DNA of 64,000 bases from assembly GCA_963727815.1 (NCBI GenBank), contig CAVSGV010000006.1, forward strand, positions 28,541 through 92,540, read 5' to 3'. This document shows positions 9,143-9,525 of this stretch, one piece after another; position 1 is the stretch's first letter, and every line of letters begins with the position of its first letter. The notes under the pieces were generated by a model that worked only from the letters and a program-made list of their open reading frames with translations, searched no databases and was not told the DNA's origin. The stretch is from an uncultured bacterium (lineage in GTDB: Bacteria > Margulisbacteria > WOR-1 > CAVSGV01). A program made the translations under genes and the position numbers.

Positions 9143-9525
9143 AAAAAAAAAAAAAAAAAAAAAAAAAAAAAAAAAAAAAAAAAAAAAAAAAAAAAAAAAA
9201 AAAAAAAAAAAAAAAAAAAAAAAAAAAAAAAAAAAAAAAAAAAAAAAAAAAAAAAAAAAAAAAAAAAAAAAAAAAAAAAAAAAAAAAAAAAAAAAAAAAA
9301 AAAAAAAAAAAAAAAAAAAAAAAAAAAAAAAAAAAAAAAAAAAAAAAAAAAAAAAAAAAAAAAAAAAAAAAAAAAAAAAAAAAAAAAAAAAAAAAAAAAA
9401 AAAAAAAAAAAAAAAAAAAAAAAAAAAAAAAAAAAAAAAAAAAAAAAAAAAAAAAAAAAAAAAAAAAAAAAAAAAAAAAAAAAAAAAAAAAAAAAAAAAA
9501 AAAAAAAAAAAAAAAAAAAAAAAAA
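9143..9525. repeat. perfect 383-bp poly(A):poly(T) homopolymer
   Basis: Read directly from the sequence: ...tactttct then A x383 then gcatgggaaaaatac... Confidence 0.99.

Follow-up and report, generated by a model that had tools for sequence, protein, structure and literature searches.

The window, i.e. the whole 64-kb stretch of DNA that was analysed, contains a run of 383 A without interruption on the plus strand (9143-9525), which is very probably a non-biological consensus or placeholder artefact that overwrites ordinary sequence. This reading, drawn from comparison with related sequences, is preferred because the length of the site is kept within 1-2 nt while every base becomes A. The real DNA at the site would comprise a divergent intergenic region, a start codon and some 110 codons from the beginning of a gene for a conserved protein of ~492 aa. 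In the 10.5-kb serine-recombinase island to which it belongs, this gene would open the conserved core.

The adenine run in the window

By direct reading of the sequence, the count given in an earlier note on this DNA (383 unbroken A) was borne out. None of the other homopolymers in the window is longer than 8 bases. Given that A makes up 0.27 of the bases elsewhere in the window, ~10^-212 runs of this kind would be expected in it. The run is in the sequence as given, and chance is excluded as its origin. Translation of frame 1 likewise agreed with the earlier description of 127 AAA (Lys) codons, a tail of 41 codons (AWEKYSEEYKEYEEFKKKHNVGLNELFPKGHMPPVQPKKYG) and a TAG stop at 9649-9651. This frame has no start codon since a TAA at 9142-9144 closes it immediately before the run. 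The features of the site and of the surrounding island are compiled in Table 1.

Table 1. Features at the adenine run and in the island around it, with the corresponding positions in the related contig L003 where they serve as anchors
Feature	Window	Strand	L003	Remarks
Low-GC integrative island, 10.5 kb	6735-17301			GC 0.23-0.38 vs ~0.5 around; L003 extent; L001 and L004 at the left junction
PIN-domain protein	6928-7614	-		Domain scan
Proteasome-like gene, frameshifted	~7969-8726	-		Domain scan
118-aa gene	8728-9084	-		Transcribed away from the tract; upstream region intact and identical to L003 through 9132
Left anchor end (...CTTGGGATTTTA)	9132		2398
Inter-anchor bases	9133-9520		2399-2787	Window: 388 (10 garbled + 378 A); L003: 389, ordinary, 40% GC
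Corrupted edge	9133-9142	+		Window AGTACTTTCT vs relative GTGCTTTCCT; directly before the run
Putative filler	9143-9520	+		378 A; would replace ~55 nt of divergent promoter region and, from the ~492-aa gene, the start codon and ~108 codons
Right anchor start (AAAAAGCATGGG...)	9521		2788
True A5, right end of the run	9521-9525	+		TCGAAAAAGCATGGG in L003 and L005-L007
41-aa tail	9526-9651	+		Middle of the ~492-aa gene by protein and DNA alignments; ends at window-specific TAG 9649-9651, TGG in relatives
Second in-frame TAG, window-specific	9655-9657	+		TAT in relatives, invariant Tyr
CGG	9661-9663	+		TGG in relatives, invariant Trp
333-aa ORF	9676-10677	+		C-terminal two thirds of the ~492-aa gene, in the frame of the tail, by homologue coverage, alignment and translation of 9145-10680
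SpoVG				Within the island; domain scan
Homologue of the 389-aa core gene	11137-12303			Frames 1-2-3-2-1
Type IIG R-M gene, broken	12699-15855			Domain scan
Large serine recombinase	15852-17360			Domain scan

Comparison with related loci

A close relative of the island was found in another assembly. The ENA contig ERZ25039480 contig_120404 (L003; 10,558 bp) encodes P0002, which is a 92% identical homologue of the 333-aa open reading frame (ORF) to the right of the run. L003 extends over the entire island and nothing beyond. Its identity is 98.6% over window 6735-9141 and 96.5% over 9521-17301, and the tract alone is left unaligned. Within the aligned stretch, window and L003 are the same over 233 nt to the left of the site and nearly so on the right. 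At the left edge, the two differ by an indel (9132) and a mismatch (9136), preceded by ~630 nt with a single other difference.

Between the anchors, the number of filler positions equals that of the hidden bases to within one (388 vs 389 nt). In L003, this stretch consists of an intergenic region with a TATAAT-like box, an ATG and then codons for MTIQEQKKKLQWDDDPRIGHYIDDNALYVLNN..., and the encoded protein (MTIQEQKKKLQWDDDPRIGHYIDDNALYVL...) shows homology to P0003-P0011 and P0026 at their N-termini. The whole window was searched for the hidden L003 sequence, which is absent from the rest of it and is therefore missing, not moved. The genome of the window itself presumably carries a sequence close to L003 2399-2787, from which the sequence proper to 9133-9520 can be approximated; in principle, the window strain could differ from L003 at this site. 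Both flanks are common to the window and this one relative only, and the length match is thus a single comparison. L003 also carries errors. It has an indel of its own at ~2775-2787 (GGCCCTTCG vs GGCCTCG in L005-L007), which amounts to 2 nt near 2780 and splits its gene into calls of 160 aa and 332 aa, so that the length match is uncertain by ~2 nt.

Further loci were reached through the 90%-identity cluster of P0002, which includes P0026, an intact protein of 495 aa. Its gene was found uninterrupted and with the full 495 aa on three more assemblies (L005-L007), namely JGI 3300031999 Ga0315274_10000021 (287 kb), ENA ERZ27247977 k141_4023005 (121 kb) and Logan SRR9651192 (11 kb). At the tract position, these loci have ordinary coding sequence that is ~90% identical to L003, and to the right of 9521 they are almost identical to the window. 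The right flank is common to them, L003 and the window, the coding region hidden in the window is common to them and L003, and the right-hand gene order is conserved. Ordinary sequence with the same flanks as in the window is therefore present in relatives, on both sides in L003 and on the right-hand side in L005-L007. The last five A of the run (9521-9525) are native sequence, with AAAAAGCATGGG at this place in four of four related loci, and the longest A-run across the region in these loci is A5-A7. The earlier note had suggested looking at related contigs, where ordinary sequence would speak against a biological tract, and this is what all four loci have at the site. Scans of genome collections with the 333-aa protein and with a 27-mer from the left flank gave no match, and neither did a scan of viral contigs with the right flank. 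When metagenomes were scanned with a 36-mer taken from the hidden stretch, the JGI contig Ga0315274_10000021 was the only match. The window does not come from E. coli, in whose genome neither the left flank nor host sequence had a match.

The related loci also contradict another origin considered in the earlier note, the scar of a reverse-transcribed polyadenylated RNA that was inserted in the chromosome. Beyond the existence of a pure A-run, nothing favours such an insertion, and its probability is close to nil. An inserted body is lacking 5' of the A, where the sequence up to 9132 is what normally precedes the 118-aa gene and is identical to L003, and a repeat scan of the corresponding L003 region revealed no target-site duplication at the tract borders. 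The run replaces sequence with no gain in length, as opposed to what retrotransposition would leave behind, and no reverse transcriptase is among the island proteins scanned. Separately, an invertible or repeat-flanked segment that causes an assembly failure was considered and rejected on finding no convincing inverted or direct repeats in the corresponding L003 region, and a hidden RNA element was rejected on finding no Rfam match.

The gene beneath and beside the run

In a protein search, the homologues of the 333-aa ORF were mostly 476-497 aa long and covered the ORF at 98-100%. Alignment places their ~150 additional residues at the N-terminus, and the N-terminal ~110 residues of the homologues coincide with the tract. 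The 41-aa tail was placed via these homologues and aligns just ahead of the 333-aa part (e.g. in P0003: ...KEWNKYSKEYKKYEE...PPRRYGGAYKWALDEIKNNPQ); searched alone, it returned no homologue in a word-indexed protein search, for which the query was too short. Tail and ORF lie in one frame with two window-only TAG codons between them. Because of the shared frame and the adjacency in the homologue alignment, the tail (~codons 110-150) and the 333-aa ORF are, as judged from these alignments, pieces of one ~492-aa gene. The earlier note had taken the tail for the orphaned 3' end of a gene whose 5' part was missing or overwritten. An overwritten 5' part agrees with the present analysis; the tail, however, belongs to the middle of the gene and continues in frame into the 333-aa ORF.

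Four substitutions (9593, 9650, 9657 and 9661), no more than 140 nt to the right of the run, set the window apart from L003 and L005-L007, which all lack them. Two of the four create a TAG (TGG to TAG at a conserved Trp/Gly and TAT to TAG at an invariant Tyr), and another one turns an invariant Trp into Arg. They are either consensus errors beside a bad patch or the marks of a true pseudogene.

From the ~492-aa gene, the 333-aa C-terminal part (P0001) is the only one on record. Among products of the 659-kb source contig, the protein search returned none with the N-terminal part, which fits with a 5' end that is absent from the deposited record too. Poly-Phe ORFs across the tract were not in the protein collection for the source contig. 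Searches of Pfam, PHROGs, NCBIfam and PDB sequences for the 476-497-aa family (P0003-P0011 and P0026) gave no hit. P0003 was modelled with AlphaFold2 (mean pLDDT 78.5, pTM 0.65), and the C-terminal ~100 residues of the model were matched by Foldseek to OmpR/PhoB winged-helix DNA-binding domains (probability ~1, TM-score 0.6-0.7 on target, E 0.05-0.3). This predicted resemblance is weak and should be taken as a lead, not a finding.

The state of the gene also bears on a biological origin of the run. A dead gene might have two premature TAG codons such as those seen here, and the run adjoins the true A5 (9521-9525), a possible seed for slippage. Both observations would suit a real, hyper-expanded poly(dA:dT) tract that replaces the promoter and the 5' end of the first core gene, either as an extreme contingency locus or through polymerase slippage. 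If true, this perfect tract of ~380 nt would be by far the longest homopolymer of a bacterial chromosome known to us. However, the earlier note's option of a real A-tract is contradicted by the four related loci, which are without a tract at the site (at most A5-A7 in the region), and it is extremely improbable; the length match would then have to be coincidental. An expansion adds length and would not remove an equal number of bases (388 vs 389 nt), and it would leave the corrupted 10 nt before the run unexplained. In addition, the run lies far beyond the maximum of 20 bases tabulated in a survey (PMC2831843). A consensus or placeholder artefact that covers the promoter and the 5' end therefore remains the preferred reading.

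The island and its sequence quality

The conserved core of the island family has the order ~495 aa (first), 50 aa, SpoVG, ~389 aa, HTH, ... serine recombinase, and the cargo differs between islands. This suggests a modular island family with restriction-modification and other possible defence genes as cargo. The cargo of the window island consists of the type IIG R-M, PIN, proteasome-like and 118-aa genes, and that of the related islands (L005 7600-18900, L006 and L007) of an N6_N4 methyltransferase, a ResIII/SNF2 helicase and a TIGR04255-family protein. Among the related islands, L006 has a called serine recombinase, and L007 has one at its truncated end. In the window, a convergent thymidylate-kinase-like gene (17279-17956, minus strand) is overlapped at its 3' end by the recombinase ORF.

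At the left junction, the Logan host contig L001 (run ERR11594402) ends at 6736, and L004, a Logan contig of 1.4 kb, spans the junction. No tRNA genes were found in the window. The product of the 118-aa gene had no match in Pfam, PHROG, NCBIfam or PADLOC, and the label 'GIY-YIG-like' that it had been given before is without Pfam support. The protein collection has the PIN, SpoVG and 333-aa products of the 659-kb source contig but not the exact 118-aa product. Exact-product look-ups of the 333-aa, the thymidylate-kinase-like and the recombinase proteins returned nothing on record.

The differences between window and L003 are mosaic, with several kb without differences and patches that are 5-15% divergent (8000-8500, 10250-12500 and 15750-16250). 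In these patches, third positions of codons take more than their share of the changes, e.g. 26 of 45 for the 333-aa ORF and 25 of 36 for the recombinase. Such a mosaic looks like genuine recombination among variants of the island and not like noise.

The quality of the sequence was assessed against independent Logan contigs of run ERR11594402, which showed 0 gaps over 15.4 kb in the host parts of the window. Inside the island, many frameshifts are present; the proteasome-like and the type IIG R-M genes are each split, and the homologue of the 389-aa gene passes through frames 1-2-3-2-1. In this run, the host genes that were looked up lie on Logan contigs of 8.3-8.7 kb and the single island gene found lies on one of 1.4 kb, which is compatible with poor support of the island by reads. 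Errors or odd substitutions cluster at both edges of the run (9132-9142 and 9593-9661). The island is the low-quality part of the contig, and the genes of 6735-17301 should be treated as error-prone when its content is interpreted.

An error-rich island and garbled bases just left of the run would also be in line with a mis-join, in which unrelated pieces were glued via poly-A read tails or low-complexity reads and the tract is a chimeric junction. The earlier note had favoured an artefact of this kind. Its call of an artefact was upheld, but the joining was not: the flanks are colinear in L003, where they are adjacent in the same order, orientation and spacing as in the window (389 vs 388 nt), and the right-hand gene order is the same in L005-L007. 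Joining by read tails would not give the true spacing, and a mis-join is thus very unlikely.

Proposed origin of the run and its consequences

If the run is a length-preserving artefact, a computational step would have written ~380 consecutive draft positions as 'A' and left their number unchanged. Such a step may have been part of consensus calling, or of polishing where coverage was poor, or it may have come later and converted no-call characters; our preferred guess would be a default base that was emitted where reads gave no evidence. We know of no biological or mutational process that converts C, G and T alike to A with the length kept. A documented precedent for a 'default A' polishing artefact was not found in a literature search.

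The run is a data-quality flag and has no biological importance. A filler that is written in a real base, not in N, escapes gene callers and screens. Here, it would hide a promoter and ~110 codons and, together with the two window-only stops, leave just the 333-aa part on record. It could also seed false reports of a 'poly-Lys protein' or a 'giant homopolymer'.

Comparison with known systems

With phase-variable homopolymeric tracts (contingency loci), the run has its location in common, in a divergent gap and across the 5' part of a gene. However, it is ~20-40 times longer than the tracts usually analysed, and the tract lengths tabulated in a survey of 99 prokaryotic chromosomes end at 20 bases (PMC2831843). 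Contingency tracts vary by a few bases, whereas the run here stands in a 1:1 replacement and the relatives are without it; a tract with a length polymorphism of a few units was found in none of the four related loci. Instead of a short tract that shifts frame or spacing, there are 383 nt, and the start codon and ~108 codons are lost.

The poly(A) tails of retrotransposed copies, such as processed pseudogenes and non-LTR retroelements, are likewise long pure A-runs on one strand, but here an upstream inserted element, a target-site duplication and added length are all lacking. Low-signal homopolymer artefacts of sequencers (e.g. poly-G in two-colour chemistry) occur at read ends. They resemble the run in being non-biological homopolymers in public data, and differ in that they would not be expected to keep the flanks at their true distance within a contig of 659 kb.

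Where coverage is lacking, a placeholder in a consensus is normally a run of N with the length of the uncovered reference or draft. The run resembles such a placeholder in its kept length, its sharp borders, the colinear flanks, the ordinary sequence that it appears to hide, and its position in the worst-supported part of the contig. It differs in that it is written as A, not N, and thus passes as real sequence and is translated into poly-Lys or poly-Phe.
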